Source of the DNA: a bacterium
GTDB taxonomy: Bacteria > Pseudomonadota > Gammaproteobacteria > GCA-002705445 > GCA-002716945
Assembly: GCA_029979505.1 (NCBI GenBank)
Contig: JAPOHH010000006.1
Location: 1,237-65,236 of the forward strand
Direction of reading: 5' to 3'
DNA: 64,000 nucleotides
The translations under genes and the position numbers were made by a program. This document shows, one piece after another, positions 2,777 through 55,278 of this stretch (position 1 is the stretch's first letter; each line of letters starts with the position of its first letter). Below the pieces are notes generated by a model that saw only the letters and a list, made by a program, of their open reading frames with translations, ran no database searches and was not told where the DNA came from.

Positions 2777-2794
2777 TATAAGCAAATGCTAATA
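2777..2794. promoter_or_regulatory. Candidate operator, TATTAG-N6-CTAATA palindrome copy
   Basis: TATAAGCAAATGCTAATA, 30 nt upstream of DUF1326 start. Confidence 0.4.
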
Positions 2795-2994
2795 ATGCAT
2801 TACCCCTCTAATATTTTAGTCATAAATTTTGTTAATATCAAAATATATTATTAGTTACTTACCACATTTTAGATCTGTTATGGTAACAACGAGCTATTAC
2901 GAGTGATTAATATGCCATTAGAGGCATAAATATATATAAATGATGATTTGAATTATGATAAAGTAGAAGATGTAATTACGACTAAGGGGGTCAA

Positions 2995-3213
2995 ATGAGA
3001 CATTTTAAACTTCTATCTGTACTGTTACTTACAGGAATTATCACTGCATGCGGTGGTGGAACATCTGCTCCATCAGAATATATGGTGAAAGTTTACCCAA
3101 TTGAAAATGATTTCGATCGTTTCGAAGAAGTTGGTCCTGTATCATCTCGCGATGCATGTACAGCTAAGGCTATGGAAATGAAAGCAGCAGCTTACGAATG
3201 CCAGCCTAAATAA
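2995..3213 (+). CDS. Small predicted lipoprotein, unknown function
   Basis: Signal peptide ending in lipobox ITAC; SD-like AAGGGGG upstream; own terminator downstream. Confidence 0.7.
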   Translation: MRHFKLLSVLLLTGIITACGGGTSAPSEYMVKVYPIENDFDRFEEVGPVSSRDACTAKAMEMKAAAYECQPK

Positions 3214-3241
3214 ATATTTACGTTTTTTTACGTAAGATTAT

Positions 3242-3274
3242 AAACCGCTAAATTCTAGATTTAGCGGTTTTTTT
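3242..3274. terminator. Intrinsic terminator between convergent lipoprotein and dat genes, possibly bidirectional
   Basis: Stem AAACCGCTAAAT (3242-3253) / ATTTAGCGGTTT (3259-3270) followed by T-run. Confidence 0.8.
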
Positions 3275-4136
3275 ATGAGTAAAATTCTTTAATAAAATCC
3301 TGAGTATAATCATACATTTTCATGGAAATAGGCCCAGCCTCTTCCGAAACTATCATATTATCCAATTTGGTTATTGGAACAACAGGATTAGTTGAACTTG
3401 AGCAAAATATTTCATCAGAATCAAACAAGTCCTTTTCTGAAATTTCACATTCAGAAAATTCAAGATTATGTTTTTTAATTAAATCAGTTAGAAATTTTCG
3501 TGTAATGCCAGGCAGTAACTTATTGCTAAGTAGAGGTGTTTTTATAACGTTATCATTTACAATAAAAACATTACTCGCAGAACCTTCGGTAAGGTAACCG
3601 TCACGTATCAGTAAAGCTTCGTATGCTGCTTCGTTGTAGGCTTTGTTCTTAATCAATACATTAGCTAATAGTGAAGTAGACTTAATATTAGACCTGAGCC
3701 ATCTATAATCATTCTCTGTAATTGCGTGTTTACCTTTTTGAATATCTTGTTTACTGAAAGGAGTATAATTTTCTCCCATGATGAGTACGGTTGGCTTACA
3801 TGATTTAGTGTATATATGATTCCTAGCCTCATCTACACCTCTTGAGATATGAATGTAAATATAATGGTTCACATAATTATTCTTAATAATAAGTTCTTTT
3901 ATTATGTCTATTATTTTTATGTCTTCAATGATGGATGGATTAATATGAATTAAGTCCAAACTATTTTTTAATCTCTTAATATGGTTTTCGATATAAAAAA
4001 TATGCTGATTGTATACCGGAATTAGTTCATAAACACCATCACCGAACAAAAATCCCCTGTCTAATACAGAAAGCTTTGCTTTCTCTTTTTGAGTATAGTT
4101 TCCGTTTAAATAAACAGTTTCGTTCTGAGACATCAT
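3273..4136 (-). CDS. dat: D-amino acid aminotransferase (PLP class IV)
   Basis: SVLDRGFLFGDGVYE, RWLRSNIKSTSLL (PLP Lys), TEGSASNVF, LPGITR; directly downstream of dacA. Confidence 0.85.
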   Translation of the reverse strand: MMSQNETVYLNGNYTQKEKAKLSVLDRGFLFGDGVYELIPVYNQHIFYIENHIKRLKNSLDLIHINPSIIEDIKIIDIIKELIIKNNYVNHYIYIHISRGVDEARNHIYTKSCKPTVLIMGENYTPFSKQDIQKGKHAITENDYRWLRSNIKSTSLLANVLIKNKAYNEAAYEALLIRDGYLTEGSASNVFIVNDNVIKTPLLSNKLLPGITRKFLTDLIKKHNLEFSECEISEKDLFDSDEIFCSSSTNPVVPITKLDNMIVSEEAGPISMKMYDYTQDFIKEFYS

Positions 4137-5260: not shown

Positions 5261-5291
5261 AGTATTTATATTATCATAACAAGTTGAAGTC

Positions 5292-9294: not shown

Positions 9295-9355
9295 ATATGT
9301 ATTATAAGTAAGAAAATTAAAAGAAAAACTAAAAATAGAGAAACGGTGATTTAAT

Positions 9356-11383: not shown

Positions 11384-11402
11384 ATAAAATAGGAGAACGA
11401 GA

Positions 11403-12047: not shown

Positions 12048-12089
12048 ATATGTGACTGATGTAGTCAGAAGATGTTATAATTCAGCACA

Positions 12090-20956: not shown

Positions 20957-21002
20957 GCAATAAATGTAAGGACTAATTTTAAAAAAACAAGATTAGGTAA
21001 TG

Positions 21003-21518: not shown

Positions 21519-21591
21519 CGAGATAGATTATTGCATATAAAATCACTAATTTCACTTGATATTTAATCAATATGAAATATATTTTTTTAGT

Positions 21592-21765: not shown

Positions 21766-21766
21766 C

Positions 21767-23567: not shown

Positions 23568-23612
23568 AAAGTAAGTATATCAGTAATGTCTGGTAAAATG
23601 ATATAATCAAGT

Positions 23613-26193: not shown

Positions 26194-26248
26194 TATTGCC
26201 TCCTTTGTCCGCATTTTGTCAATTTATTAGTAGATTAGTGTATTAATA

Positions 26249-26266
26249 TATAAGTTTTGTCTAATA
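26249..26266. promoter_or_regulatory. Candidate operator, TATTAG-N6-CTAATA palindrome copy
   Basis: TATAAGTTTTGTCTAATA, 56 nt upstream of monooxygenase start. Confidence 0.3.
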
Positions 26267-26360
26267 TATTTATACTTTGTCTACTTTCTGTCCATAACAA
26301 TATTATAGCAAAACAGTTATGTCAACATTATTTTTAAAATAATTTTAGTAATAGTAGGGT

Positions 26361-41188: not shown

Positions 41189-41191
41189 TTA

Positions 41192-41548
41192 TTAATTTAA
41201 CTCGTGAGTAGTATTACTATCTAAAGATTCATCTGGTTTTTTATAATCAGGGTCATTAGGGTTTATAAAAATAAACTGCTTATCATTACTATCTAGTTCA
41301 ACATAGTCAAGCTTAGTATTTTTAAGATTAATCATAGAATTTGGGTCAATTAGTATATTTATACCGTTTATCTTCAATTGTAAATCTTCTTCTTTAGATT
41401 GATCAAATCCCATAAGATAGTTAAACTTCCCATTATCATCTACACTTAGGGATATACGTAAAGGCCAATCTGAGCTTTCAGAAATTTCTGATGCTTTTTT
41501 AATTTGCTTCGCTGCTTGATCTGTTATTTCAAAAATTTGTTGTACCAT
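41192..41548 (-). CDS. dsrR: IscA/HesB-like protein DsrR (no Cys)
   Basis: IscA-like ITDQAAKQI..YLMGFD..FIFINPN without Fe-S Cys; last gene of dsr operon. Confidence 0.8.
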   Translation of the reverse strand: MVQQIFEITDQAAKQIKKASEISESSDWPLRISLSVDDNGKFNYLMGFDQSKEEDLQLKINGINILIDPNSMINLKNTKLDYVELDSNDKQFIFINPNDPDYKKPDESLDSNTTHELN

Positions 41549-42893
41549 TAACTTTCTCTACGAATTTAATAAAATACTCTACCCAATTAAACGCATCTGT
41601 TGATCTAAGATGAGAAAATGATGCGACAGTATTTTTATAGATTAAACCATCTACTTTTCCATTTATACCATAGCCTCTTTTTATATCAAATGCATAATTG
41701 TAATTCTTTTTTCCGTTTACTAAAGAGGAATAGTGAAATTCATGAGCATGTATCTTGCTATTTTTAATTCCCCATGGATGAGATTGAGGTTGTAATACAG
41801 TATAACCTCTACCAATCGGTTTATCATTCATATTAATATCAATATCAAATACATTACACATTTTATTCATATTATTTTCATATTTTAATCTTTTACACAG
41901 ATACATTAGTCCACCGCATTCTGCATAAACAGGTAAATTATCTTCAATTAGTTTTTTTATAAACTTTCTCATATTAATATTGGACTCGAGTTTCTTTGCT
42001 TCAGTTTCAGGAAAGCCTCCTCCTATAAATAGGGCATTAATTTTTGGCAAACTTTTATCTTTTATGAGATTGATGAATTTTACTTTGTGACCTAATGCAC
42101 GAATATTTTCGAGATCATCCTCATAATAGAAACCAAATGCAGAATCCTTAGCGACTCCAATCGTCATACTATGCTTGTTTTTTAATGGAATTTTATGTGG
42201 CGAAACTTTTATTGTTTCATTTTTATGTTTTGGATATATTTTTTTATAATCAATATTATTTTTAATCATTGTTGTAAGATTTCTAATTATTTTTCCTTTA
42301 TTAGGATGTTGGAATGCTGGTATTAATCCTAAATGTCTTTCATTAATCATGTTCTTAATTAGAGGTATTGACCCAATAATTTTAAGATTTGTATATTCTT
42401 TCACTGCTGATATAAGTTTTATTTCATGCCTAGATGTGGAAACATTATTAAGGATAATATTCTTAATTTTTAACTTTTCATCAAATTTACTATAACCTAA
42501 CAATAATGGAGCAATTCCACGCGTCATGCCGTTACAATCAATAACTAAAATTATTTCTACATTTAGTATCTTTGCCATTTCAGCATTACTATCTTGACCT
42601 GAAGTAGATACACCATCAAACAGCCCTTTTGTTCCTTCTATCAATGAAAAATCAATATTTCTTGATTTATTACGATAATTTAATAACAACTCTTTATTAT
42701 TCATTGTGTTGAAATCTAGATTATAACAAGGCGTTTTTGAAGCTGCTGCTAACCACGACGGATCTATAAAATCAGGACCTTTTTTAAATGTTTGTGTTGT
42801 ATATCCAAGTTCCCTGGCTAGTCCAGCTAAACCAATTGATACAATTGTTTTGCCAGATGACTTTTTTGTCGATGATATCAGAGTAGATTTCAT
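41529..42893 (-). CDS. dsrN: Siroheme amidase DsrN (CbiA-like)
   Basis: SSGKT, KKGPDFID, IEGTKGLFDG, YAECGGLMYL, HEFHYS; after dsrP. Confidence 0.88.
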   Translation of the reverse strand: MKSTLISSTKKSSGKTIVSIGLAGLARELGYTTQTFKKGPDFIDPSWLAAASKTPCYNLDFNTMNNKELLLNYRNKSRNIDFSLIEGTKGLFDGVSTSGQDSNAEMAKILNVEIILVIDCNGMTRGIAPLLLGYSKFDEKLKIKNIILNNVSTSRHEIKLISAVKEYTNLKIIGSIPLIKNMINERHLGLIPAFQHPNKGKIIRNLTTMIKNNIDYKKIYPKHKNETIKVSPHKIPLKNKHSMTIGVAKDSAFGFYYEDDLENIRALGHKVKFINLIKDKSLPKINALFIGGGFPETEAKKLESNINMRKFIKKLIEDNLPVYAECGGLMYLCKRLKYENNMNKMCNVFDIDINMNDKPIGRGYTVLQPQSHPWGIKNSKIHAHEFHYSSLVNGKKNYNYAFDIKRGYGINGKVDGLIYKNTVASFSHLRSTDAFNWVEYFIKFVEKVNGTTNF

Positions 42894-42907
42894 TTAAATA
42901 GTATGTG

Positions 42908-44080
42908 CTATTTTTTTGCAGGTATAAATTTCAAATTGGTTATTAATATTAGTATGATAATCAATGCTAGAGATGTACCACCAATACCAAGCCCAAACTC
43001 ATAAATAGATGGAGTATATCCATGTATATTATTATCAAAGAATGATGATTCAATAATAGTATGATCAGGAAATATATTGAGAGGAAATGCTTGGCCACCA
43101 ATAATAATAACTGCTACAGCAAAGAAGCCGCCTACTATTACCATTATAGATGTTAACGTTAAGGGGAAATCTCTATTGTCTTTATTAGTTAATTCAAAAA
43201 ACAGTGGAATTAATAAACCAAAACCAACCTGGCCTAACCAAAACATAGTTGTATAACCACCGCCATCGAGCAGTATAAATTTTTCTATAGCAATCTGCTT
43301 GGATATATATAAATTGGTTATATGGTATAAGATAAGAAAATAGATGTTAGCTAGTAAAAATATTATTATTAGTTTACGTATATTGACGGTAATTTCTGAC
43401 GGGATAGTTATGTTTTGCATTTTCGATATTATTCGTAATAATAAATAAAATACCGCTGTGCCATATAATAGTGACATTATTATAAATAAAGGAGCTAAAA
43501 CTGCTGTAGAATAAGCTTCCCTTGCAACAAGAAAACCAAATATTGATCCAGTACCTGTGGTCAATATAATTCTCCATCCAAAGGCAAGTTTACCAACTAC
43601 TGATGAAAATTTACTTACATTGAAGTCCAGCATAGTCCAAATATATATAGATAAGATTACAAAAAAACCTGAGTACAAAAAGATATTCCAAGCAAATATT
43701 GACTTAAAATTATAAGTTGTCATTGCAACTATTAACCTGTCTGGTCTTCCCAAATCAAGGACTAATATAATCAACCCAGAAACTAGAAAAGCTATTGCGA
43801 AAAGAGCAGACAATGGCGCTAGTGGCTTATATAGTTTTTTATCAAATGCAGACGACATAGATGCTATATTAAGAACACCGGATGCTATGACTATTAATGT
43901 TACTGCAAATATATGAGGTAAGCCCCATACAATCTGATTATTCATTCCGGTTACATAGTGACCTTCATGTTCCATGTAAGCTGATGATGCCAATCCAAGT
44001 AATACAAGAAATCCTAAAAAAAGGAAAGTTCCCCAATACAGATATCTACATGTTTTAAGTTTTTCTAGAGTATAGTTCAT
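42908..44080 (-). CDS. dsrP: NrfD/PsrC-type membrane subunit DsrP
   Basis: VTGMNNQIVWG, LDLGRPDRL, polytopic; after dsrO. Confidence 0.92.
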   Translation of the reverse strand: MNYTLEKLKTCRYLYWGTFLFLGFLVLLGLASSAYMEHEGHYVTGMNNQIVWGLPHIFAVTLIVIASGVLNIASMSSAFDKKLYKPLAPLSALFAIAFLVSGLIILVLDLGRPDRLIVAMTTYNFKSIFAWNIFLYSGFFVILSIYIWTMLDFNVSKFSSVVGKLAFGWRIILTTGTGSIFGFLVAREAYSTAVLAPLFIIMSLLYGTAVFYLLLRIISKMQNITIPSEITVNIRKLIIIFLLANIYFLILYHITNLYISKQIAIEKFILLDGGGYTTMFWLGQVGFGLLIPLFFELTNKDNRDFPLTLTSIMVIVGGFFAVAVIIIGGQAFPLNIFPDHTIIESSFFDNNIHGYTPSIYEFGLGIGGTSLALIIILILITNLKFIPAKK

Positions 44081-44805
44081 ATATTTGAATAAAAGACTTT
44101 TTGGTCAAGATTTAGATCGTTCCTAAGCCTTCTGGGATTATTAGAATTCATGGCTAATGATATTTTACTGTTTTTATCATTTAAATCTCCAAATGTAATA
44201 GCAGAGTGTCCTAAATTATTACAAGCATCCTCACACGCAGTTGTTTCTGATCCATGATCAATTCTGTTAACACATAAATTGCAACTCTCAACACAGCCCT
44301 TACCTCTAGGCGCATTTGTATTTTGTTGTGTTAGTGTTTCATGGACAAAAGAACGAGCCTTAAAAGGACAAGCCATCATACAATATCTGCAACCGATACA
44401 TGTATGTTGATTCACCATTACTATACCGTCTATTCTTTTAAATGAAGCACCTGTTGGACAAACATCGCAGCATGGTGGGTTTTCACAATGCTGACACATT
44501 AGAGGCATGGTGGTAATTTTATCAGTAGTGTTACTTTTGACTGTAACTTTTCGTATCCATTGTGAATCAGTTTCTGGTCTTCCAAAACCTGTTAAACCAT
44601 TTTCTTCATTACATGCATCTACACATGCAGTACATCCGTCTATACATTTTGATGTGTCTATGTGAATACCCCAACTTTGTTTATCTGATACTTTTTCTGC
44701 TAGTGGTTTTTTAGCATGTGCTTTATTCGAGATTATAGATGGCACGACAAAAGTTATAGCTAAAGCAGTAGCAGATTTCACAAGAAATTTTCTTCTATTT
44801 ATCAT
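44077..44805 (-). CDS. dsrO: Periplasmic ferredoxin DsrO
   Basis: Tat RRKFL; CIDGCTACVDAC, CQHCENPPCCDVCP, CIGCRYCMMACP. Confidence 0.93.
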   Translation of the reverse strand: MINRRKFLVKSATALAITFVVPSIISNKAHAKKPLAEKVSDKQSWGIHIDTSKCIDGCTACVDACNEENGLTGFGRPETDSQWIRKVTVKSNTTDKITTMPLMCQHCENPPCCDVCPTGASFKRIDGIVMVNQHTCIGCRYCMMACPFKARSFVHETLTQQNTNAPRGKGCVESCNLCVNRIDHGSETTACEDACNNLGHSAITFGDLNDKNSKISLAMNSNNPRRLRNDLNLDQKVFYSNI

Positions 44806-45247
44806 ATGTAATGTTATTAGCTAATTCATTTATTTCTTTAACAGAACTACTAGTTATATTTTTATGTTTAGGATAACGAGGTTCTGCAGCATGACATGAA
44901 AAACATGTGATATTTGTAGCTGTTTTTACATGGCATTCCTGGCAAAATTGTCCTTCAGCATTAATAGGTATTGCTTTACCTTGATTATCATATGAAACAT
45001 GACAATCTACACAATTTGCTAAACTATGCTGTTTTGTCCTTACACCATCTATTACAGTTTCATCTCTTTGATGCAGTAAGAACATATAATGCTCTTTTCG
45101 CATTAGATCAGTTGGTTCAACACATGCTTCTTGAGAATCTGCTTTAGACTTCCCTGGAGATACATGTGGATTACCATCATGCGCTTCTACGCCGAGTATA
45201 CCTGCCATTAAGATAAATATCAGAAAAGATATTTTGAGGTGTTTCAA
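44795..45247 (-). CDS. dsrJ: Triheme cytochrome c DsrJ
   Basis: CVDCH, CQECH, CFSCH; CVEP..MRKEH..LLHQRD. Confidence 0.9.
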   Translation of the reverse strand: MKHLKISFLIFILMAGILGVEAHDGNPHVSPGKSKADSQEACVEPTDLMRKEHYMFLLHQRDETVIDGVRTKQHSLANCVDCHVSYDNQGKAIPINAEGQFCQECHVKTATNITCFSCHAAEPRYPKHKNITSSSVKEINELANNITYDK

Positions 45248-45277
45248 TTATTTTCCCCTGATTAAAAGGCGAGTTTT

Positions 45278-47251
45278 TTATTCGCCGAGCCCCATTTTAA
45301 TATAACCAGTTGGACATACATCAGCACAAATATGACAGCCAATACATTTGTTGTAATCTGTATCTACATACCTGCCTAATGTTGCTTCGTCTTTTTTAAC
45401 TCTGAAGACAGCATCTTGTGGGCAGTAAATTACACAATTATCACATTCAAAACACATGCCACAACTCATACATCTAGAAGCCTCCTTAATTGCCTCTTCT
45501 TCTGTAAGTCCTATTATTCTATCTTTGTAATTATCAATGACCTCATCTCCACTAGGTACATCCTCTCCACGTTTAAGTCTATCTTCGTGTTTAAAATGAC
45601 CTAAGAATAATTCAGTTGATGGAATAATTTCTTGTGCAGAACGGTCTTCATAATTATGCAACACATTCTTGCTTGTATCTGAGCCTCTGTATAAATCAGG
45701 GTCTATAGGTGCTGTATAAGGCTCTGGCTCTAAATCAGTTTCTCTCAATTTATCTAGAAGATTAAAATGATGTACATCAACTTTTGGTCTCCTTTTAAAA
45801 TCATTATTTTCGAAATAGCTTTTGATTGTTTGCGAGACTATAGATCCTTGCCCTATCGCTGTTGTGAGTAAGTGTGGTCTGATAATATCACCTGCAACAA
45901 AATGACCTTCTTTTGTTTTATGTCTGTAATAATCGTCGACTTCAAAAAACCCTCTTTCATTACCAAGCTCATCTATACCTTCAATGTCAGGTGACTGACC
46001 AATAGCAGCTACAATCAAGTCAGCTTCAATTCTTTTCTCAGTCCCTTCTACAGGAACTGGAATATTATTTTCATCAAATGTGCATTCTGCAACAATCATC
46101 GCTACTGCTTTGTTATCGTCATTTTTTTCAATTTTAACTGGCATAACACCATTAAGAATTGTTACTCCTTCGTGCATAGCGTCATTTACCTCTTGCTCTG
46201 CAGCAGTCATTTCTTCTTTAGCAAACAATGATGTCAAGGTAACATCTGCACCTTCTTTCGCAGCAGATTCTGATACATCTTGAGCTACATAACCATGAAC
46301 AATGTTTTCTGGAGTATCTTGTTCATTCATTTTAGAGATGTGGCCTAGACGTCGTGCGACTGAGACTACATCAATAGATGTATCTCCACCTCCAACGCAA
46401 ATTACTTTTTTTGAACCCACCTTAAGTCTTCCATCACAAAATGCTTCAAGGAAGTCTACACCTGTTATGCAATTGGTAGCGTCACCACCTTCTACAGGTA
46501 TTGCTTTCCCGTTCCAGCATCCTATTGTCCAAAGAACTGCATCATGAGATTTCTCTATATCATCTAAAGGTAAATCTTTTCCAACACGCTTTCCTAATAC
46601 AACTTCGATATCTCCTAAATTTAAGATTCGTTCTATTTCTTTATCAAGTAAATCTCTAGGAGTTCTGTATCCAGGGATACCGTAGCGCATCATACCTCCA
46701 AGTTCTTTTCTTTCTTCAAAGACTGTTGAGGCGTAACCCATTTTTCTTAGTTGATAAGCTGCAGATAAACCTGCAGGTCCACCACCTATTATCGCTACTC
46801 TCTCTTTATTAAGTTTAGGTGCTTCATCAAATGAATAACCTTCTTCAATAGCTTTATCGCCTATGAATTGCTCAACGGCATTAATTCCTACATAATCATC
46901 AACTTCATTTCTATTACATCCACTCTGGCAAGGTGCGGGGCATACTCTACCCATTTGTGACGGAAACGGATTAGCTGTTGTAGATCTTCTAAATGCATAT
47001 TCTGACATTGACATGTCTTGTGGTGGTTGCTCTATACCTTTTATAATTTGAAGCCATCCTCGGATGTCTTCACCAGAAGGACAGCTACCTTGGCATGGTG
47101 GAGTTTTATGGACATAAGTCGGACATTTATGAGAATGGTCCTGCTCAAAGATTGCCTCTGAGAAATCACTATATGTATGATCTCCCTCATTATACCTTTT
47201 ATAGGTATTTTCCTCTTTCATCAAGTTGATTGTCTTTTCTAATTTAGTCAT
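45278..47251 (-). CDS. dsrL: Iron-sulfur flavoprotein DsrL
   Basis: PPCQGSCP, GGGPAG, GGGDT, C-terminal 2x[4Fe-4S] (CMSCGMCFECDNC; CIGCHICADVCP); TSLF where NADPH types have YRR suggests NADH type. Confidence 0.93.
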   Translation of the reverse strand: MTKLEKTINLMKEENTYKRYNEGDHTYSDFSEAIFEQDHSHKCPTYVHKTPPCQGSCPSGEDIRGWLQIIKGIEQPPQDMSMSEYAFRRSTTANPFPSQMGRVCPAPCQSGCNRNEVDDYVGINAVEQFIGDKAIEEGYSFDEAPKLNKERVAIIGGGPAGLSAAYQLRKMGYASTVFEERKELGGMMRYGIPGYRTPRDLLDKEIERILNLGDIEVVLGKRVGKDLPLDDIEKSHDAVLWTIGCWNGKAIPVEGGDATNCITGVDFLEAFCDGRLKVGSKKVICVGGGDTSIDVVSVARRLGHISKMNEQDTPENIVHGYVAQDVSESAAKEGADVTLTSLFAKEEMTAAEQEVNDAMHEGVTILNGVMPVKIEKNDDNKAVAMIVAECTFDENNIPVPVEGTEKRIEADLIVAAIGQSPDIEGIDELGNERGFFEVDDYYRHKTKEGHFVAGDIIRPHLLTTAIGQGSIVSQTIKSYFENNDFKRRPKVDVHHFNLLDKLRETDLEPEPYTAPIDPDLYRGSDTSKNVLHNYEDRSAQEIIPSTELFLGHFKHEDRLKRGEDVPSGDEVIDNYKDRIIGLTEEEAIKEASRCMSCGMCFECDNCVIYCPQDAVFRVKKDEATLGRYVDTDYNKCIGCHICADVCPTGYIKMGLGE

Positions 47252-47275
47252 TTAATTCATCACTTTATATAAGTT

Positions 47276-47293
47276 TATTATACTTTTCTAATA
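47276..47293. promoter_or_regulatory. Candidate operator, TATTAG-N6-CTAATA palindrome copy (internal dsr promoter region)
   Basis: TATTATACTTTTCTAATA, 25 nt upstream of dsrL in the 78-nt dsrK-dsrL gap. Confidence 0.5.
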
Positions 47294-47329
47294 CATCAAT
47301 TTTAAAAGTATAGCATAAGATTTTTTGAG

Positions 47330-48829
47330 CTAAACCTCTTTTTTGTTCATTATTATTGCATTACTTACTAGCTGATGAAGGCTAACAATTTGGTCTAATT
47401 CCAGATCATAGTATTGAAATACCTTACTAAATTGACTCTTACAAATTGCACATATAGCTGCCATGTGCGTGACGCCTTTCTCATCAATTAGTTGTTTTAA
47501 AGCTTCCATTCTAGGTAGTGCACCCTTTACTCTTAATTCCATCAAATCATCAGTCAGTAGGCCACCACCGCCACCACAGCAGTATGTTTTCTCTCTGATT
47601 GTCTCCTCATCCATATCGTAAAAGTTATTAACAACAGTTTTGATGATTTTTCTGGGTATAGTAAATTGTCCCCCCATTACTCCTCCCATATTTGAAGCAC
47701 GAGCAACATTACAAGAGTCATGATAAGTTAGTGTCATGTCATCATTTGCGCTTTTATCAAACTGTAGGACATTTTGATCAATTAATGAATTAGTGATTTC
47801 ACAGATATGTTGAGGCACTGGATACCTTGGATCTAGGAAATCGAAAGGACCAGCTAAAGTATTTAAAAAGCTATATGCTACTCTCCATGCATGACCACAC
47901 TCACCAAATACAATCCTTTTTACATTAAGCTCTAATGCTGCTTCTCTAATCCTCATAGCAAGTTTTTTCATGTTGTCGTAACTTCCTATAAACATTCCAA
48001 AATTTGCAGCTTCACTAGCATGCGAACTTAGCGTCCAGCTTATTCCTGCTTGGTGAAACACTTTCGCATAGCCTATAAGCCCGTCAACATGTGGTTCGGC
48101 AAAAAAATCTGCAGATGGAGTTACAAGAAGAACTTCTGAATCTTTTACATCTAATGGAAATTTAACATCAACTTCGATATCATCAAGAACATCCTCTTCT
48201 AAGCCTTCAAGTGTATCTGCAAGTGCAGGTTCTGGTAAACCGAGATTATTTCCAATTTTATGAACTTTACTAATTATTTCGTTACAATATTTTTGACCAA
48301 CACCAATAGAATCCATGACTTCTCTTGCTGCCATTGAAACCTCAGCAGTATCAATACCAATAGGACAAAAAACTGCGCACCTTCTGCATTGAGAGCATTG
48401 ATGATAGTAAGAATACCAGTCAGCTAGAACTTCTTTTGTTAAATCCTTTGCACCAACAAGTTTTGGAAAGTACTTTCCTGGTAATGTAAAATATCTTCTG
48501 TACACACTTCGCATTAGATTCTGTCTGCCTACAGGCATATTTTTTGGGTCTTTAGTTCCTTGGTAATAGTGACACTTATCTGTGCATGCGCCACACTGTA
48601 TACAAGAGTCTAAATAAACTCTAAGTGATCTGTATTTGCCTAACAAATCACCCATCTTATCGATAGCTTTTTCTTGCCAGTTATCTACTAATTCTCCAGG
48701 GTAACCAAGACTTGTCTGAAATTCCTCTTTTGATTTAAATGGAGACAGGTGTGCAGTAGCACTATTTTCCAATTTTGGAATAACAGGGAAAGTCCTTACT
48801 TCAGGTGTTTCAAATGTGTTTTTAGCCAT
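47330..48829 (-). CDS. dsrK: DsrK (HdrD-like)
   Basis: CIQCGACTDKC, CSQCRRCAVFCP, GECGH, YHDSC, CCGGGGG, CAIC. Confidence 0.95.
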   Translation of the reverse strand: MAKNTFETPEVRTFPVIPKLENSATAHLSPFKSKEEFQTSLGYPGELVDNWQEKAIDKMGDLLGKYRSLRVYLDSCIQCGACTDKCHYYQGTKDPKNMPVGRQNLMRSVYRRYFTLPGKYFPKLVGAKDLTKEVLADWYSYYHQCSQCRRCAVFCPIGIDTAEVSMAAREVMDSIGVGQKYCNEIISKVHKIGNNLGLPEPALADTLEGLEEDVLDDIEVDVKFPLDVKDSEVLLVTPSADFFAEPHVDGLIGYAKVFHQAGISWTLSSHASEAANFGMFIGSYDNMKKLAMRIREAALELNVKRIVFGECGHAWRVAYSFLNTLAGPFDFLDPRYPVPQHICEITNSLIDQNVLQFDKSANDDMTLTYHDSCNVARASNMGGVMGGQFTIPRKIIKTVVNNFYDMDEETIREKTYCCGGGGGLLTDDLMELRVKGALPRMEALKQLIDEKGVTHMAAICAICKSQFSKVFQYYDLELDQIVSLHQLVSNAIIMNKKEV

Positions 48830-49564
48830 TTATTTACTCTCCATTTTTTTGGCCCACTCTGCCACATGTCTTTTGCTTCTTGCATTATCAACCTGATTTC
48901 TTGTAGGGCTGAAGAACAATCCAGGTGCATGTAATAGTTTACTGTAAGGAAAGATTATCATTAATGCAATGACCAAAGATAGATGAATCAACAAAACTGT
49001 ATCACTTGGTAGTTCAGAAAAATTAAAGGATAACAATCCAGTAAAAAAAAGTTTAATTGCTAGGATATCTGATGGATACCATTTCATTAAAAGACCGGAA
49101 CCAGCTATTGCAATAATTAGAATCAGAATTAAATAATCAGATGGTGAAGAGATATACCTAACTCTATCAACGAATACACGTCTTGCAAATAAACCTAATA
49201 AGCCTGCCAACATAAGATATGCTGCATAATGCCCAGCAACTTGCACTAATTCAAAAGAAACCCAAAACCACACTGGGTCGGTAAAATATTTCAAATGTCT
49301 AAATGCAGCTAATAGAAGTGCTAGGTGGAAGATCCAACTAAAGAGCCATGTCCATTTAGTTGCAGAGAAAAGACTTTCAAAAAAAACAACTTCTCGAAAT
49401 ATTCTAATAGCCACACCTTTTTGAGTCATTGGTGCTGGTGGTGTAGGTATTTTTAGAGGTGCAGGTATGGTTGAGTACTCATATATTCTATAGGCCAACC
49501 CAATAAACAATATTGCAGCAGCGAAGTAGAACAACGCTGCATACAATATAGTTACAAATGACAT
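48830..49564 (-). CDS. dsrM: Membrane cytochrome b DsrM
   Basis: FHLAL, RHL, IHL, FPYSKLLHAPG. Confidence 0.92.
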   Translation of the reverse strand: MSFVTILYAALFYFAAAILFIGLAYRIYEYSTIPAPLKIPTPPAPMTQKGVAIRIFREVVFFESLFSATKWTWLFSWIFHLALLLAAFRHLKYFTDPVWFWVSFELVQVAGHYAAYLMLAGLLGLFARRVFVDRVRYISSPSDYLILILIIAIAGSGLLMKWYPSDILAIKLFFTGLLSFNFSELPSDTVLLIHLSLVIALMIIFPYSKLLHAPGLFFSPTRNQVDNARSKRHVAEWAKKMESK

Positions 49565-49591
49565 TGGCTATCCCTGACCTTGTGATTATTA

Positions 49592-49924
49592 TTATACGCA
49601 ACCAGTTGGTTTAGGAAGACCTGCAAATTTACATGCTTGTTTGCCTGGACCATATGGGAATAGTTCGTATAGATACTTACTGTTTCCTTTTTCTTTACCA
49701 AGTTTTTTACCAACAGCTTTTGTAAGCACTCTTACTGCTGGTGCTATTTGATATTCTTCGTAATATTCACGCAGGAAGTTAATTATTTCCCAGTGATCAT
49801 CACCTAGTTCAATGTCATCTTCCTTTGCCATTACTGTAGCAATATCTTTTTCCCAATCATTTAGATTGGACAGATATCCTTCTTCATCTACTTCTATTTG
49901 TCTGCCATTTACTTCTAATGCCAT
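49592..49924 (-). CDS. dsrC: DsrC with both C-terminal cysteines
   Basis: YELFPYGPGKQACKFAGLPKPTGCV. Confidence 0.96.
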   Translation of the reverse strand: MALEVNGRQIEVDEEGYLSNLNDWEKDIATVMAKEDDIELGDDHWEIINFLREYYEEYQIAPAVRVLTKAVGKKLGKEKGNSKYLYELFPYGPGKQACKFAGLPKPTGCV

Positions 49925-49944
49925 TTTCTTCTCCTAAATTAAGA

Positions 49945-50247
49945 TTAAAGCCAATTTTGTGTTTTTTCATTATCCGCTACTAATTTAACGAAACCTTTAT
50001 AATCCACTATTTCTATATTAGTAGTAAGATTAGAATTATCAAGTCCTCTTGCTTCTAAATCAGGTCCTAAAACATAGAACTTTATATCTCCCTGATGATC
50101 GTGTATATCTTTTTCAAACTGAGTACCTTTAGTGCAGGCATAAACAGCATCCTCAATAAAAAGTATAGATGCTCCTTTTTGAGCATATCGTAAACAGGTG
50201 GTTAAGCTGTCTTTTTCAAATGGTGATTTATTAATTGTATGTAACAT
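49945..50247 (-). CDS. dsrH: Sulfurtransferase subunit DsrH
   Basis: MLHTINKSPF, FIEDAVY, DLEARG. Confidence 0.93.
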   Translation of the reverse strand: MLHTINKSPFEKDSLTTCLRYAQKGASILFIEDAVYACTKGTQFEKDIHDHQGDIKFYVLGPDLEARGLDNSNLTTNIEIVDYKGFVKLVADNEKTQNWL

Positions 50248-50627
50248 TAGAAATTAAAAAATACCTCTGATTCATTGAATAAATTTTTTAAGTCTGATGC
50301 AGGCAATATTTCTACATCAACAGATAAGTCCTCTTCGCTTAGACCTCTTGCTTCTAAAGACTCTTTTTCAACATACAATTTCTCTACATCATACATATCA
50401 AGTGCGCCAAATGTCTTACTAAAGTTTTTAGTGGCAATTCCATCAGTATTTTGTCCTTTTTTTAGCTGATAAACACCATCATCTATAAATGCTAAAGCTA
50501 CATCTTGTTCAAAAGCAGCAGCAATTAGTACTACCTCTAAAGCTTCATGAGCATATATTGTTCCATGAGGAGCTTTCCTGTTTACGTAAATAAATTTTTT
50601 AATTATGCCTGATTCTTGTTCTTCCAT
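50247..50627 (-). CDS. dsrF: Sulfurtransferase subunit DsrF
   Basis: RKAPHGTIYAHEALE, FIDDGVYQL, SLEARGL; start set at 50627. Confidence 0.93.
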   Translation of the reverse strand: MEEQESGIIKKFIYVNRKAPHGTIYAHEALEVVLIAAAFEQDVALAFIDDGVYQLKKGQNTDGIATKNFSKTFGALDMYDVEKLYVEKESLEARGLSEEDLSVDVEILPASDLKNLFNESEVFFNF

Positions 50628-50628
50628 A

Positions 50629-51021
50629 TCAATCACCAAATGTAATCATGCGATCAGCTTGTATACCAGCCTCGATAAGTTGTCCTAAGCCTGAAATTCT
50701 AAATTTGTCCGCAATATTATTTGCATCTTTTTTATTACGTTCCATTTCACCTTGATCTACCATTCCGCGTCTTTGTGCAGCTGCTACACAAAGAACTAAG
50801 TCTAGGTTATGTTTTTCAGCTAATTCAGTCCATCTGTTTGGTATGTGACGGTCATCTTGAGGTGGAGTTGCTAGACGAGTTCCATTATTAACGCCATCAT
50901 GATAGAAGAATACACGATATATTTCATGTCCTTCAGCTATTGCAGCCTCTATAAATTTATAAGCTGAATCAGATGCTTGATGCTGATAGGGGCCTTCATT
51001 GATTAAAACTCCAAACTTCAT
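50629..51021 (-). CDS. dsrE: Sulfurtransferase subunit DsrE
   Basis: GPYQHQAS, FFYHDGV, active Cys in LCVAAAQRRG, SGLGQL. Confidence 0.95.
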   Translation of the reverse strand: MKFGVLINEGPYQHQASDSAYKFIEAAIAEGHEIYRVFFYHDGVNNGTRLATPPQDDRHIPNRWTELAEKHNLDLVLCVAAAQRRGMVDQGEMERNKKDANNIADKFRISGLGQLIEAGIQADRMITFGD

Positions 51022-51033
51022 AAACTGTTTGTA

Positions 51034-52119
51034 CTAAAAACGTACGTAAGCTGATGAGTTAAGTGTTTTTCTTCCACCGCGCCAGTTATCAATATGATAC
51101 TTAGTAAACGGTAGCTCTGTGAGTTCAAAGAATCTAGGCCATCCAATTCTCTCTATCCAATCGTTTATGCGCTCCCAGTCTCTGGCGTCTTCTTTGTATG
51201 CAGAAAGGATTCGCTTAACAATAGCTGTTGCTTCAGGCCATCTTGGTGGATTGTTAGGAATACCAGCAGCTACAAGTTTTTGAAATGATGGTTTGCTTCT
51301 TGCATTAGAGTGATTACCACCAACCCAAATAGCTAGTTTACTGTGCTCCGGATCATTAATTTGCATAGGAGGGCATGGTGGAAAACATGCGCCACAACAT
51401 ATACATTTTTTTTCATCAACTTCTAATGATGGTTTACCGTTAACCATAGCAGGTCGAATCGCAGCTACAGGACAACGAGCCACAACAGATGGTCTCTCAC
51501 ATACGTTTGATACTAAATCATGATTAATTTTGGGTGGTTTTGTATGTTGGATGTTAATAGCAATGTCACCTTGGCCACCGCAGTTAATTTGACAACAAGA
51601 TGTGGTTAAATGAACTCTATTTGGCATTTCATTGTTTCTAAACTCGTCGATAAGTTCATCCATCATTGCTTTTACTACACCAGATGCATCTGTACCTGGA
51701 ATATCACAATGCAGCCATCCTTGTGTATGAGATATCATTGCAACCGAATTCTTTGTGCCTCCTACGATAAAGCCTTCTTTCTCAAGCGCTTCAATCAAAG
51801 GCTCAACTTTAGATTTATCTTTTACCATGTATTCAATATTGCTTCTGATAGTAAATCGTACATAACCATCTGCATATTCGTCGCCTATGTCACATAGTGT
51901 TCTAAGTGTAAATACATCTAATATTCTTTGAGTACCTGCTCGAACAGTCCAAATTTCCTCACCACTGTTAGCGTAATGTACTAGTACACCTGGTCTTGGA
52001 TGTTCATGATATTTCCATTGACCAAAATTTTTACGCATCGTTGGATGCATATACTGAAATCCATCCGGTGCACCTGTTTCAATTGGTGTTCTCATTTCTT
52101 TTTTTGCATTTTCACTCAT
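51034..52119 (-). CDS. dsrB: Reverse dissimilatory sulfite reductase beta subunit
   Basis: HTQGWLHCDIPGTDASG, TSCCQINCG, CICCGAC, WERINDWIERIGW. Confidence 0.97.
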   Translation of the reverse strand: MSENAKKEMRTPIETGAPDGFQYMHPTMRKNFGQWKYHEHPRPGVLVHYANSGEEIWTVRAGTQRILDVFTLRTLCDIGDEYADGYVRFTIRSNIEYMVKDKSKVEPLIEALEKEGFIVGGTKNSVAMISHTQGWLHCDIPGTDASGVVKAMMDELIDEFRNNEMPNRVHLTTSCCQINCGGQGDIAINIQHTKPPKINHDLVSNVCERPSVVARCPVAAIRPAMVNGKPSLEVDEKKCICCGACFPPCPPMQINDPEHSKLAIWVGGNHSNARSKPSFQKLVAAGIPNNPPRWPEATAIVKRILSAYKEDARDWERINDWIERIGWPRFFELTELPFTKYHIDNWRGGRKTLNSSAYVRF

Positions 52120-53372
52120 TATGCTGAATCCTTTTTCTTATCGGCTTTTTCATACCATTTTACTGCTTCATCATCCCAGTCATCTGTTCTTACATAAGAA
52201 CTTTCCCTTGGATTAGCTACCATATTTGGATCTACATCTATGCCAATACCTTCAAGGAAATTAACTAGTCCAATCCTTTCAATCATTTCACCGCATCTTT
52301 CATGCTCTAATGCATTATCTGCCCAGAAATCTATAGTTTCCTCAGCGATTTCCACAAGTCTTTCCCAATCTTCCTCTTTTTCAAGTTTCATGAATGGAAC
52401 AATAACTGTACCCATTAAATCACCAATCTTAAGTGTCCTTTTTCCACCAATGAGAATAGTCACGCCTTTATCATCACCTGGATGAAGTGCTTTAGGAACA
52501 ACGTTCAGACAGTGCATACATTTAACACAATTTTGATTATCAATATCAATTGAATCATCATCGTTAAGTGATATGGCATTAGTAGGACATCTTGTAACAA
52601 TGTTATCAATAACATATTTACGACCTTTCATTTCTACATATTTTTTGAATTCTTCTTGATCAACCTTGATATTATCTCTCCATGTACCTATGACAGACAT
52701 ATCTGCTCTTTCAATAGAGTTCATGCAATCATTTGGACATCCTGATACTTTAAATTTGAATTTATATGGTAGTGCTGGTCTATGCATATCATCCATGAAG
52801 TTATTTACGAGCAATCTGTGCGCTTTATGTTCATTTACATTAGACATTTCACATCTACCTGCGCCGACACATGACATTGCAGTTCTAACACAAGGTCCGG
52901 CACCGCCTAAGTCCCAGCCTTTTTCATTGATATCATCAAAGAAGTGTTGTGTTGATTCTGTTGTAGATCCGATGAACATTATGTTACCTGTTTGCCCATG
53001 GAATGTTACTAGACCAGAGCCATGCTTTTCCCATGAATCAGCTAAGTCACGCAGTGATTCTGTTGTGTAATAGTTTCCAGCAGGTGGCTGCACTCTTAAT
53101 GTATGAAATTCTTTTGATTTAGGGAAAGCATCACCAACTTCAGAAAATCTAGGTATAATACCACCACCATAACCGTAGACACTGACAGTACCACCTTTCC
53201 AATATCCTTTACGCGTTTCATAAGAATGCTCAAGTTGACCTAAAAGGTCATTTGTCATTTCATTAATTCTTTTCTCAGGATGAGTATCTCTGAGTCTTTT
53301 TATTCCGCTGATGAAACTCGGCCATGGGCCATTCTCTAGCTCATCAATCATAGGTGTATCATGTTTTTTCAC
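52119..53372 (-). CDS. dsrA: Reverse dissimilatory sulfite reductase alpha subunit
   Basis: TPMIDELENGPWPSF, EFHTLRVQPP, CVRTAMSC..GCPNDC siroheme motif; GTG start. Confidence 0.97.
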   Translation of the reverse strand: MKKHDTPMIDELENGPWPSFISGIKRLRDTHPEKRINEMTNDLLGQLEHSYETRKGYWKGGTVSVYGYGGGIIPRFSEVGDAFPKSKEFHTLRVQPPAGNYYTTESLRDLADSWEKHGSGLVTFHGQTGNIMFIGSTTESTQHFFDDINEKGWDLGGAGPCVRTAMSCVGAGRCEMSNVNEHKAHRLLVNNFMDDMHRPALPYKFKFKVSGCPNDCMNSIERADMSVIGTWRDNIKVDQEEFKKYVEMKGRKYVIDNIVTRCPTNAISLNDDDSIDIDNQNCVKCMHCLNVVPKALHPGDDKGVTILIGGKRTLKIGDLMGTVIVPFMKLEKEEDWERLVEIAEETIDFWADNALEHERCGEMIERIGLVNFLEGIGIDVDPNMVANPRESSYVRTDDWDDEAVKWYEKADKKKDSA

Positions 53373-53415
53373 AATTTATCCCCTGAAATCCGTTGGTATA
53401 CAATGTATATTATTT

Positions 53416-53433
53416 TATCATTAGTTTCTAATA
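53416..53433. promoter_or_regulatory. Candidate operator, TATTAG-N6-CTAATA palindrome copy
   Basis: TATCATTAGTTTCTAATA in the divergent dsrA / tauD-like intergenic region, 44 nt upstream of dsrA. Confidence 0.45.
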
Positions 53434-53516
53434 TGTCCATGAGAAGTTAATATTGCACCGATATGAAATAAAAAACAAGTGTTAAAATTCACTATGAAAG
53501 TCCATTATATAGAATC

Positions 53517-54347
53517 ATGATATTAAGCGCAAAATCAAAGGATTTCATTGAATGGGCAGCTAATAAAGAGCTGAATATCCCTTTAAATATTAATGATTTG
53601 AAGGTTAATTTGCGTGATATTAACCATGTTTCAAAGACTGAAATATCTCAAATCAAAGAGAAGTTAACAAAATTCAATTGTTGTATATACATATCAGACA
53701 GTAATCTTAAGGAAGACGATAATATTATGAAATTTGCAATGTCTCTAGGTATGAGAACATTCGATTCTCATAATATAGACGATAGTAACATTAGCACGAT
53801 TTCAGCAGATAAAACTGAGAATAATATTAGATATATACCGTATACGAATAAAGCATTAAATTGGCACACAGATGGGTACTATGATAGTAAACCAATTTTT
53901 TCATGGTTACTTCACTGTGTCGAACCAGCATCATCAGGTGGAGAAAACTTCTTATTAGATCATGAGCTTGCAATCAGAGAATATATACTTAAGCATGATG
54001 ATATTTCATGCTTAATGAGTAATAACGCATTTTCTATTCCTAAAGATAAAGTTGCTGAACGGGAAGTTACTTCGAATTATGTTTGTGATGTAAATAATGA
54101 GTATAAAAAGTTACATATGAATTTCTCAATGAGAAAGGAAAATATTAAAATTAACAAGAATTCAAAATCTGCTGTGTCAAAATTGATAAAAATCATAAAA
54201 GAGGATTGTAAAAAATATCATTTAACCTATAAACTTTCGAAAAGTGAAGGTATTGTTAGTAATAATATATTACATGGAAGAAATTCATTTAAAGACGGTC
54301 CAACTATGAGAAAAATTCTTAGAATAAGATCCCACGAGAGATTGTAG
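53517..54347 (+). CDS. TauD/TfdA-like 2-oxoglutarate-Fe(II) dioxygenase family protein
   Basis: LNWHTDGYY (HxD), LLHC..GGEN, NNILHGR. Confidence 0.78.
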   Translation: MILSAKSKDFIEWAANKELNIPLNINDLKVNLRDINHVSKTEISQIKEKLTKFNCCIYISDSNLKEDDNIMKFAMSLGMRTFDSHNIDDSNISTISADKTENNIRYIPYTNKALNWHTDGYYDSKPIFSWLLHCVEPASSGGENFLLDHELAIREYILKHDDISCLMSNNAFSIPKDKVAEREVTSNYVCDVNNEYKKLHMNFSMRKENIKINKNSKSAVSKLIKIIKEDCKKYHLTYKLSKSEGIVSNNILHGRNSFKDGPTMRKILRIRSHERL

Positions 54348-54541
54348 TGTTATACCTGAGCGCAATATTAATAGAAAGAAAAGATGTAGAAACATTTGAA
54401 GATTTTCTTGAAGTGATCAAAGAGAAAGCTGCAAGTGGTGAGCGCTTCATCAGGTTTGACCTGAAACCTCCATTTCCAGATACACCATCAAATTGGGAAG
54501 ATCGCGTTGAAAGTGCATTTAGTGGTTATATAAAAAAATAA
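54347..54541 (+). CDS. Small conserved protein of sulfur oxidizers, unknown function
   Basis: DLKPPFPDTPSNWEDRVESAF motif recalled from dsr-associated small proteins; coupled to neighbours. Confidence 0.65.
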   Translation: MLYLSAILIERKDVETFEDFLEVIKEKAASGERFIRFDLKPPFPDTPSNWEDRVESAFSGYIKK

Positions 54542-54543
54542 CT

Positions 54544-55221
54544 ATGTGGCAGGAAAAGACAGAAAAAAAATCAATTGCAGAACAATCAGAAATGATTGAC
54601 CTTTCATTTTCAGTTAATTGCAAAGAACTTCCTTATGACCATGCATATGAACTTTCCTCTGAAATTATCAATCTTATACCTGATATTGTGAATGATAAAA
54701 GAAACGCAATTCAAACGCTTCATGGTCCAATGTCTGGTAATGGATGGGTAAGAGCAGATGGAGAAAATATTTTTTTATCAAAAAGAGCCAAGCTTTGTTT
54801 AAGAGTAAATAAATTACAAGTTGATAAAATACGAAACATAGAAGGTAAAAAAATTAAATTGTTCGGCAATGACCTTAGTATAGGTAAGTCGAAGACTAAA
54901 GTATTCTTAGTTGTTAGAGATCTGTTCTGTAGATTCGTCTCATGCCAGGAAGACCTACCTGAAGATATATTTTTAGAACAGGTTCAAAAAGAATTAGGAG
55001 CACATAATGTTCATATCAATAAAGCATTATGTGGACAATCTAAAAGAATCATATTTGGTGATGAAACTTTGCATACGAGGTCTTTAATGATAGCTGATTT
55101 GTCAAAAGAGGAGTCAATTAGGTTACAAGAAGAGGGTGTTGGTGGTCAAAGATTATATGGCTGTGGAATTTTTCTACCTCATAAATCAATAGACGCAGTT
55201 AGTAACTTCAAAGAGGACTAA
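54544..55221 (+). CDS. Stand-alone Cas6/Cmx6-like RAMP protein
   Basis: LPYDHAY N-terminal His motif; C-terminal Gly-rich loop GVGGQRLYGCGIFLP; no other cas genes or array in window. Confidence 0.75.
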   Translation: MWQEKTEKKSIAEQSEMIDLSFSVNCKELPYDHAYELSSEIINLIPDIVNDKRNAIQTLHGPMSGNGWVRADGENIFLSKRAKLCLRVNKLQVDKIRNIEGKKIKLFGNDLSIGKSKTKVFLVVRDLFCRFVSCQEDLPEDIFLEQVQKELGAHNVHINKALCGQSKRIIFGDETLHTRSLMIADLSKEESIRLQEEGVGGQRLYGCGIFLPHKSIDAVSNFKED

Positions 55222-55260
55222 TATTTACCTAATTACCAACTAGACTTATAGTTATTAGTA

Positions 55261-55278
55261 TATTAGAATTTTCCAATA
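55261..55278. promoter_or_regulatory. Candidate operator, TATTAG-N6-CTAATA palindrome copy
   Basis: TATTAGAATTTTCCAATA, 29 nt upstream of the DsrC paralog; 15/18 identical to the dsrL copy. Confidence 0.5.

Follow-up and report, generated by a model that had tools for sequence, protein, structure and literature searches.

Genes and candidate operators in the window

The window analysed here is a stretch of 64,000 nucleotides (nt) on contig C9 of genome G000 (positions 1237-65236). The genome comprises 917 kb in 15 contigs, has 31% G+C and an estimated completeness of 90%, and belongs to a family with genomes of approximately 1 Mb and at least six genera, for which the relatives are metagenome-assembled genomes of marine Gammaproteobacteria; it probably represents a sulfur oxidiser of the SUP05/Thioglobaceae type. 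The window carries the complete dsrABEFHCMKLJOPNR operon of the reverse dissimilatory sulfite reductase (rDsr) pathway (41192..53372, minus strand; Pfam assignments). Palindromic 18-bp boxes of the form TATTAG-N6-CTAATA precede dsrA and dsrL as well as genes for a DUF1326 protein, an AlkB-like monooxygenase and a DsrC paralog. The box is probably the operator of the single ArsR/SmtB-family regulator of this genome, with repression of a regulon that would be relieved by sulfane sulfur. We infer the binding, the repression and the sulfur signal from comparisons of sequences.

A sequence-only reading of the window had pointed out the five 18-mers, and both their sequences and their coordinates are exact. 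Its counts of matches to the consensus TATTAGAAnnTTCTAATA (13, 12, 14, 13 and 15 of 16 for DUF1326, monooxygenase, dsrL, dsrA and DsrC paralog) were reproduced, and in the same order the boxes end 29, 34, 24, 43 and 28 nt before the start codons. Its gene names agree with Pfam, i.e. DUF1326 with PpoB2/DUF2182, FA_desaturase/AlkB-like, the dsr operon and the DsrC paralog. In the following, boxes are scored with a symmetrised position weight matrix (PWM) built solely from the orthologs, in other genomes, of the sites at the regulator gene and DUF1326. The promoters are matches of a consensus scan and are thus predictions.

The putative operator box of DUF1326 (2777..2794, minus strand; TATTAGCATTTGCTTATA in gene orientation) has one mismatch to TATTAG-N6-CTAATA, and its PWM score of 20.7 is the second highest in the genome. 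It lies at approximately +7 to +25, downstream of a predicted sigma-70 promoter (2813..2841, minus strand; TTGATA-17-TAAAAT). The putative target operon (983..2747, minus strand) consists of DUF1326 (1968-2747; PF07040, 6.5e-39) and PpoB2/DUF2182 (983-1909; PF09948, 7e-61). The leader of the FA_desaturase/AlkB-like monooxygenase gene (25000..26214, minus strand; PF00487, 1.7e-28) holds a putative box at 26249..26266 (minus strand; TATTAGACAAAACTTATA in gene orientation), also with one mismatch and a PWM score of 16.2. This box lies at approximately +24 to +41 of a predicted promoter (26297..26325, minus strand; TTGACA-17-TATTGT), the TTGACA of which is invariant in the alignment of orthologs. 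Translation probably begins at the ATG at 26193, as an AAGGAGG ribosome-binding site precedes this codon, and with this start the gap to the box is 55 nt.

Two putative boxes belong to the dsr operon. The box in the dsrK-dsrL gap (47276..47293, minus strand; TATTAGAAAAGTATAATA in gene orientation; one mismatch, PWM score 13.6) has a right arm that also serves as a TATAAT -10 element. Two candidates for an internal promoter of dsrL are found here (47277..47315, minus strand), namely TTTAAA-18-TATAAT (47306-47277) and a conserved extended -10, TGCTATACT (47315-47307), located 13 nt upstream of the box. The dsrA box (53416..53433, minus strand; TATTAGAAACTAATGATA in gene orientation) has two mismatches; its left arm fits the consensus and its right arm is fused to an extended -10. 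It fills the spacer and part of the -10 of the predicted dsrA promoter (53412..53439, minus strand; TGGACA-16-(TG)n-TAAAAT), which has 10 of 12 matches plus a TG extension. The fifth putative box (55261..55278, plus strand; TATTAGAATTTTCCAATA; one mismatch, PWM score 16.0) overlaps with its left arm the -10 TAGAAT of a predicted promoter (55241..55269, plus strand; TAGACT-17-TAGAAT). The gene that follows encodes a DsrC/TusE-family paralog (55307..55645, plus strand; PF04358, 2.1e-32), which, compared with true DsrC, is without both C-terminal cysteines and ends in ...GGLPESRRKGGY. As the boxes lie on, overlap or closely follow predicted core promoters, their placement fits repression, and all box positions are of the repressor type by these predictions.

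Conservation of the boxes

Conservation was assessed in orthologous upstream regions from at most 30 genomes of the family. Each of the five sites is retained at orthologous promoters (14-29 genomes, six genera), with a mean column identity of 0.76-1.0 in the arms versus 0.47-0.78 in the other intergenic columns, and all stay in place while their flanks diverge. The DUF1326 alignment of 29 genomes anchors solely on (A)TATTAG-N6-CTAATAT(A), with identities of 0.90 in the arms, 0.57 in the spacer and 0.47 in other intergenic columns. The spacers are free and include CATTTG, CAAACG, AAAATA, TAATTA and AGTTCT, among others. Arms that are held around a varying spacer are the signature of a dimeric DNA-binding protein.

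Similarly, ATATATTAGACAA is invariant in the leaders of 14 monooxygenase orthologs (at least 78% identity) and is followed by (C/T)T(T/A)ATAT. In the dsrK-dsrL gap, 17 genomes share an invariant TATTAG and an invariant AATAAnCTTATAT; both lie downstream of TGCTATAAT, itself conserved, and the stretch TATGCTATAAT upstream of dsrL is nearly invariant in the same 17-genome alignment. At the dsrA promoter (20 genomes, six genera), ATATTAGaAAnnAATGATAA and the longer stretch ATATTAGaAAnnAATGATAAnATAATA are nearly invariant. For the DsrC paralog (19 genomes), AGTATATTAGAATT is invariant and its spacing to TAGAC is constant. The right arms at dsrA and dsrL are conserved yet deviate from the consensus because this arm is shared with the -10 element. 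The five AT-rich palindromes are real, conserved sites, at which binding is predicted.

Other conserved features adjoin some of these boxes. The monooxygenase leader (26215-26330, minus strand) contains six copies of a (T/G)(A/G)GACA(A) word within approximately 130 nt, i.e. TTGACAT, GGACAGA, TAGACAAAG, TTAGACAAAA (inside the box), TTGACAAAA and CGGACAAAGG, and most of them are kept in the 14 orthologous leaders. These words may be sites of a second regulator or an RNA-level element. Most relatives have a paralog of the monooxygenase (71% identical; L093-L104, L107-L109), of which G000 has no copy. The region upstream of the paralog is different but conserved, with TTGACN, a GGGAA-N-TTCCC hairpin, further paired stretches and no box in most genomes; it looks like a structured leader, such as a riboswitch or attenuator.

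Adjoining the dsrA box, AATGATAA (53405-53425, minus strand) is invariant, and three genera read ATAATGATAATATAAT at this place (dsrA upstream, L011-L018). The latter agrees with 11 consecutive bases of the E. coli Fur-box consensus, and the Dsr enzymes, which are rich in Fe-S clusters and sirohaem, may therefore be controlled by iron. The genes of the cluster divergent from dsrA (53517-55878) encode TauD-like and Cas6/Cmx6-like proteins (the latter matching TIGR02807 at 1.4e-34), the DsrC paralog without cysteines and a protein of 77 residues; within this cluster, the box precedes the DsrC-paralog gene only. Gene order around dsrA is identical in 19/19 relatives, with p220, then p77-DsrC paralog-Cas6-like-TauD-like, divergent from dsrAB.

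Enrichment of the motif

The 16-position consensus of the sequence-only reading has a fixed AA..TT spacer, and in this form it did not hold. With up to three mismatches it has six matches in the window versus 2.69±1.76 in shuffled sequence, and 7 of 100 shuffles reach six. As this is not significant, the full consensus was dropped in favour of a motif consisting of the arms only; the spacer is not part of the motif. Two extra window matches (5113 and 61122) are intragenic and seem to be due to chance. The 8-mer TATTAGAA was likewise rejected as a monomer unit, with 10 of its 175 genome copies intergenic and no enrichment.

The arms-only motif TATTAG-N6-CTAATA was counted in the whole genome, for which crude gene calls (longest non-overlapping open reading frames) give 44 kb of intergenic and 873 kb of coding DNA. 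With up to one mismatch it occurs eight times in intergenic and 11 times in coding DNA. Order-1 and order-3 Markov models of intergenic DNA lead to an expectation of 0.85-1.0 intergenic sites, and none of the 150 simulations per model reaches eight. Against a composition-matched background, the motif is thus over-represented in intergenic DNA (eight sites versus approximately 0.9). A 14-position form, ATATTAG-N6-CTAATAT, is observed five times in intergenic DNA versus 0.1-0.2 expected.

Since four of the eight intergenic arms-only sites were already among those of the sequence-only reading, a non-circular test was made with the PWM described above. Of 917,035 positions, the matrix ranks the monooxygenase site 4th, the DsrC-paralog site 5th, the dsrL site 9th and the dsrA site, which scores 9.1, 48th. 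At a score of at least 14 there are six intergenic and two coding matches, although coding DNA is approximately 20 times larger. Coding matches at C14:45374 and C8:142442 fall in genes that, by eye, are sugar-isomerase-like and RibD-like, respectively; with their TATTAT arms and T-rich spacers they were judged to be chance. A perfect match in genome G013 (C3:575) is within a small open reading frame and is also a chance coding match.

A candidate ArsR-type regulator

The sole perfect palindrome in the genome, TATTAGTTTTGGCTAATA, is found outside the window at C6:34111-34128, 18 nt upstream of a 113-codon gene (C6:34147-34488). This gene encodes an ArsR/SmtB-family regulator of 113 residues (HTH_5, PF01022, 3.2e-13), which scores 80.9 bits against the ArsR/SmtB subfamily model NF033788 of NCBIfam (cut-off 55) and is the only HTH_5 match in a six-frame search of the genome. 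The gene is single-copy and present in 16/16 high-quality genomes of the family. Its box reads TTATTAG-N6-CTAATATAG, with both arms invariant in 24 genomes. TATAAT follows 6 nt later, which places the box at approximately -36 to -19, overlapping the -35 region. An autoregulatory site on the own promoter is the usual layout for ArsR-family repressors.

The closest solved relatives of the protein are BigR (3PQJ, E=1.5e-21), SqrR (6O8K, 1.8e-15), YgaV and HlyU. Its cysteines C43 (LMILCKL) and C109 (VFCSK) align with the sensing pairs of BigR (LMLVCTL and FCAQ; C42/C108), SqrR (C41/C107) and YgaV. The published recognition site of SqrR and YgaV is ATTC-N8-GAAT, as quoted in PMC9774250. Read as ATTA-N8-TAAT, the present box has the same geometry and agrees with this site in three of four bases per half-site.

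Two further features of the regulator locus were observed. In the genus of the window genome the regulator ATG stands 6 nt after TATAAT, which suggests a leaderless mRNA. The gene order at C6:34111-35337 is ArsR-type regulator, rhodanese-like membrane protein and secB, which resembles both E. coli ygaVP and yibN-secB; read by eye, the rhodanese-like neighbour has Asp at the position of the catalytic Cys.

Members of the predicted regulon

Conserved sites were tested at seven orthologous promoters. Membership across genera is well supported by the alignments for the regulator gene, DUF1326-DUF2182, a second DUF1326 paralog, the monooxygenase, dsrA, dsrL and the DsrC paralog. The second DUF1326 paralog is divergent from a gene for a DsrL/GltD-like flavoprotein and has its box approximately 75-93 nt upstream; this box is perfect in G004, G006 and G013 and degraded in G000 and G005. 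Three other candidates were left out of the core. For petA, encoding the Rieske subunit of the cytochrome bc1 complex, only TATATATTA is conserved beyond two genera. The site at a third DsrC-like gene occurs in G000 and G005 only, and the site upstream of acs has no counterpart in the single other genus examined. In the matrix scan, the other intergenic promoters examined gave nothing above 9.3, and none of the sites stands before a sox gene.

Genome G013 carries a perfect TATTAGTATATTCTAATA (G013:C1:738315-738332; L140) between queA and a 146-residue gene, the ortholog of G000 C8:229900-230343. No box is present at this ortholog in G000, which indicates that membership of the regulon varies between genera.

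Regulator and box in other sulfur oxidisers

A wider scan used one genome per species. Orthologs of the regulator with 65-81% identity were found in Chromatium, Allochromatium, Thiococcus, Thiothrix, Thiolinea, Parabeggiatoa, Thiomargarita, Thiodiazotropha, Sedimenticola, Thioalkalivibrio and tubeworm symbionts. Across 80/80 orthologous loci (L209-L288), which come from many orders of gammaproteobacterial sulfur oxidisers, neither the recognition region VGTSQSNISQHLAILRDKGIL nor either of the two cysteines changes. This range covers free-living purple sulfur bacteria, Thiothrix, Beggiatoa-like bacteria, Sedimenticola and invertebrate symbionts. For a small regulator, such strict conservation of VGTSQSNISQHLAILRDKGIL and the cysteines across 80 loci is unusual.

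Among 69 loci outside the family with enough flanking sequence, 14 have a box scoring at least 10 in the 290 nt before the regulator gene, whereas none of 610 control windows taken at these loci has one (Fisher p=3.5e-15). Many of the remaining loci show looser TATAAT-N6-nTTATA forms. In a second family (f3; three genomes of 3-3.9 Mb), the region upstream of dsrA aligns on ATATAAG-N6-CTAATAC in 3/3 genomes, with scores of 11.7, 16.6 and 18.7 and with different spacers (TGTTTG, TGATTA and CATATA). In the same three upstream regions (L022, L292, L293) the left arm of the box shares bases with a perfect inverted repeat, ATATCTC-N4-GAGATAT, and a conserved CCCATCAGCrGGATTCT follows the box.

We put forward only tentatively, as a possibility short of an even chance, that the ArsR-type protein could be a conserved sulfane-sulfur switch of rDsr across gammaproteobacterial sulfur oxidisers, beyond the small-genome family. 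This broader reading gains support because the box accompanies the regulator outside the family and recurs at dsrA in all three second-family genomes; two class-level relatives, discussed below, are without it. If it is true, the co-targets, i.e. DUF1326/DUF2182 pairs, the cluster of the Cys-less DsrC paralog and the AlkB-like di-iron enzyme, would be unrecognised parts of sulfur-oxidation physiology.

Proposed mechanism and alternative explanations

In the proposed mechanism, the reduced homodimer would sit on the operator at or just downstream of core promoters and block transcription. Its targets would be its own gene, the dsrA promoter, the internal dsrL promoter, the Cys-less DsrC paralog, two DUF1326 loci (one with DUF2182/PpoB2) and the AlkB-like monooxygenase. 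When sulfane sulfur, as persulfide or polysulfide, builds up, C43 and C109 would become bridged, the dimer would leave the DNA and the regulon would be induced. The perfect palindromes, at its own gene and at DUF1326, would be bound most tightly. With one consensus arm and the other arm shared with the -10, the dsr sites would allow a graded response. This model follows the behaviour of SqrR, BigR, YgaV, SoxR and sHdrR (PMC9774250, PMC10451225, PMC12423496).

The sequence-only reading had proposed that rDsr, the AlkB-like monooxygenase and DUF1326/DUF2182 are under the joint control of a single dimeric regulator, which would probably act as a repressor. Enrichment, conservation and promoter positions bear out this core idea of a shared regulator and regulon, which is supported on every available computational test; the AA..TT spacer and the likeness to LetA/NarL boxes fell away.

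Several observations weigh against an operator of a BigR-like sulfur sensor that governs dsr. The equivalog model for BigR, NF040642, gives the regulator 89.3 bits, which is below its cut-off of 155; the protein is thus a relative and not an equivalog of BigR, and its signal could differ from that of BigR. The dsrA site is weak by matrix and its right arm is off consensus. At the four window sites that lie downstream of or overlap promoters, it is the 5' arm (in gene orientation) that does not vary, a bias not expected of a purely symmetric operator; at dsrA and dsrL it is explained by the overlap with -10 elements. For the candidates at petA, the third DsrC-like gene and acs, conservation is weak or absent, or limited to close relatives. 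Furthermore, the class-level relatives G036 and G033 have no box within 300 nt of dsrA.

It is unlikely, though the most serious of the alternatives, that the box is bound by another transcription factor and that the ArsR-type gene is merely one of its targets. The association of box and regulator across taxa would also arise if another conserved factor controlled the regulator gene, and the inventory of transcription factors in this genome covered the HTH_5 and GerE families. An ArsR-type repressor is nonetheless favoured by the strongest and most invariant site, which lies on the regulator's own promoter as is usual for autoregulation in the ArsR family. Its geometry agrees with the SqrR/YgaV site, every recurrence of the box goes with an unchanged recognition helix, and a genome of approximately 0.9 Mb has few regulators.

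A role at the RNA level, or one tied to the dsr genes themselves, is quite improbable. In such a scheme, a UAUUAG-loop-CUAAUA leader hairpin would be read by the presumably CRISPR-less Cas6-like protein (54544-55221), or the box would be a DNA site of the Cys-less DsrC paralog. DsrC of Allochromatium reportedly binds dsr promoter DNA. Four of the five window sites are in probably transcribed DNA, the invariant arm is the 5' one, and the Cas6/Cmx6-like protein and the DsrC paralog stand beside dsrA in 19/19 relatives. The sites at dsrL, dsrA and the DsrC paralog, however, fold no better than shuffled sequences (-0.5 to -0.8 kcal/mol) and do so in differing registers, and substitutions in the arms break pairing and do not compensate. 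The best site, moreover, is upstream of the -10 of the regulator gene and probably untranscribed. Against either version, the box accompanies the ArsR ortholog in distant taxa.

Still less probable is that the boxes are chance matches or generic AT-rich promoter elements, such as -10-like TATAAT variants, in a genome of such low G+C content. The failure of the first 16-position consensus to reach significance in the window, the unenriched 8-mer and the coincidence of one arm with a predicted -10 at dsrL and the DsrC paralog would fit this explanation. It does not account for two arms with fixed G/C positions and 6-nt spacing that are conserved across six genera while spacers and flanks vary, for an approximately ninefold enrichment over Markov backgrounds, or for the recovery of the sites by an independently trained matrix.

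The consensus of LetA is TNAG-AAATTT-CTNA, and GacA boxes have a hexamer-N6-hexamer layout. Although the core TTAG-N6-CTAA fits both, the likeness to a response-regulator box of the LetA/GacA type (NarL family) that the sequence-only reading had seen appears coincidental and has next to no probability of being meaningful, as PF00196 (GerE/LuxR-type helix-turn-helix) has no match at E<=0.01 in a six-frame search of this 90%-complete genome while 13 of 14 control genomes match, the AAATTT spacer is not conserved, and the sites precede protein-coding genes (24-55 nt) at repressor positions rather than lying at upstream-activating positions of small-RNA (Rsm/Csr) genes.

Comparison with known systems

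The sensing of inorganic sulfur by sulfur oxidisers is poorly understood (PMC10451225). In a literature search of incomplete coverage, no regulator was found to be assigned to reverse-Dsr genes in Gammaproteobacteria; nor did it reveal a BigR/SqrR-type regulator linked to rDsr in this class or a description of the present operator. Repression of sulfur-oxidation genes by ArsR-type sensors of sulfane sulfur is known from SqrR, SoxR and sHdrR, and what appears to be new are the predicted targets, i.e. rDsr, DUF1326/DUF2182 and the AlkB-like enzyme. The outcome is an 18-bp operator of defined sequence, a candidate repressor of 113 residues and a small set of promoters, which can be tested without culturing the organism, and with it a testable candidate for the switch of dsr genes in small marine bacteria. 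Ties to a sulfane-sulfur response would give a functional lead for each of DUF1326, DUF2182/PpoB2, the Cys-less DsrC paralog and the stand-alone AlkB-like enzyme. For abundant marine sulfur oxidisers with genomes of approximately 1 Mb, one regulator for much of the sulfur-dependent control is suggested.

Among known boxes, that of LetA/GacA shares the 18-bp hexamer-N6-hexamer palindrome and the AG...CT core. It differs in that no NarL/GerE-type protein is present here, the spacer is unconserved, and the boxes occupy repressor positions before protein-coding genes. PSOS-2 is a sulfide operator of Chlorobiaceae predicted by phylogenetic footprinting at dsr (dsrC) and sox promoters (bioRxiv 10.1101/172254). 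Like the present boxes it overlaps the -10 or +1 and was read as a repressor site. It belongs to a different phylum and no binding protein has been named for it, whereas a specific candidate is available here.

BigR of Xylella, Agrobacterium and Acinetobacter is the best match of the regulator among solved structures (3PQJ), and YgaV of E. coli also matches. Autoregulation at the own promoter, predicted here, is common to BigR and YgaV. As in E. coli ygaVP (PMC9774250), a gene for a rhodanese-like membrane protein comes directly after the regulator gene, although the neighbour here has Asp in place of the catalytic Cys. BigR controls a persulfide dioxygenase operon and not dsr.

SqrR of Rhodobacter capsulatus, an ArsR-family persulfide-responsive master repressor, is likewise a small winged-helix protein with both cysteines (6O8K, E=1.8e-15), and its sites hold repressor positions on sulfur-oxidation promoters. 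The operators share a palindromic geometry (ATTC-N8-GAAT for SqrR, ATTA-N8-TAAT here) and differ in the half-site, which is ATTC for SqrR and ATTAG here. The targets also differ: rDsr, DsrC paralogs, DUF1326/DUF2182 and the AlkB-like enzyme are predicted here, and those of SqrR are reported to be sqr and photosynthesis-linked genes in the work of Shimizu et al. of 2017. Finally, SoxR and sHdrR of Hyphomicrobium denitrificans and SoxR of Paracoccus, Pseudaminobacter and Cupriavidus are ArsR-type repressors that respond to sulfane sulfur and act at several promoters in sulfur-oxidation gene sets (PMC10451225, PMC12423496). No sox site was detected by matrix in the present genome, in contrast to SoxR. 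Whereas SoxR and sHdrR serve Sox and sHdr-LbpA in Alpha- and Betaproteobacteria, the predicted core target of the regulator described here is rDsr in small marine Gammaproteobacteria.

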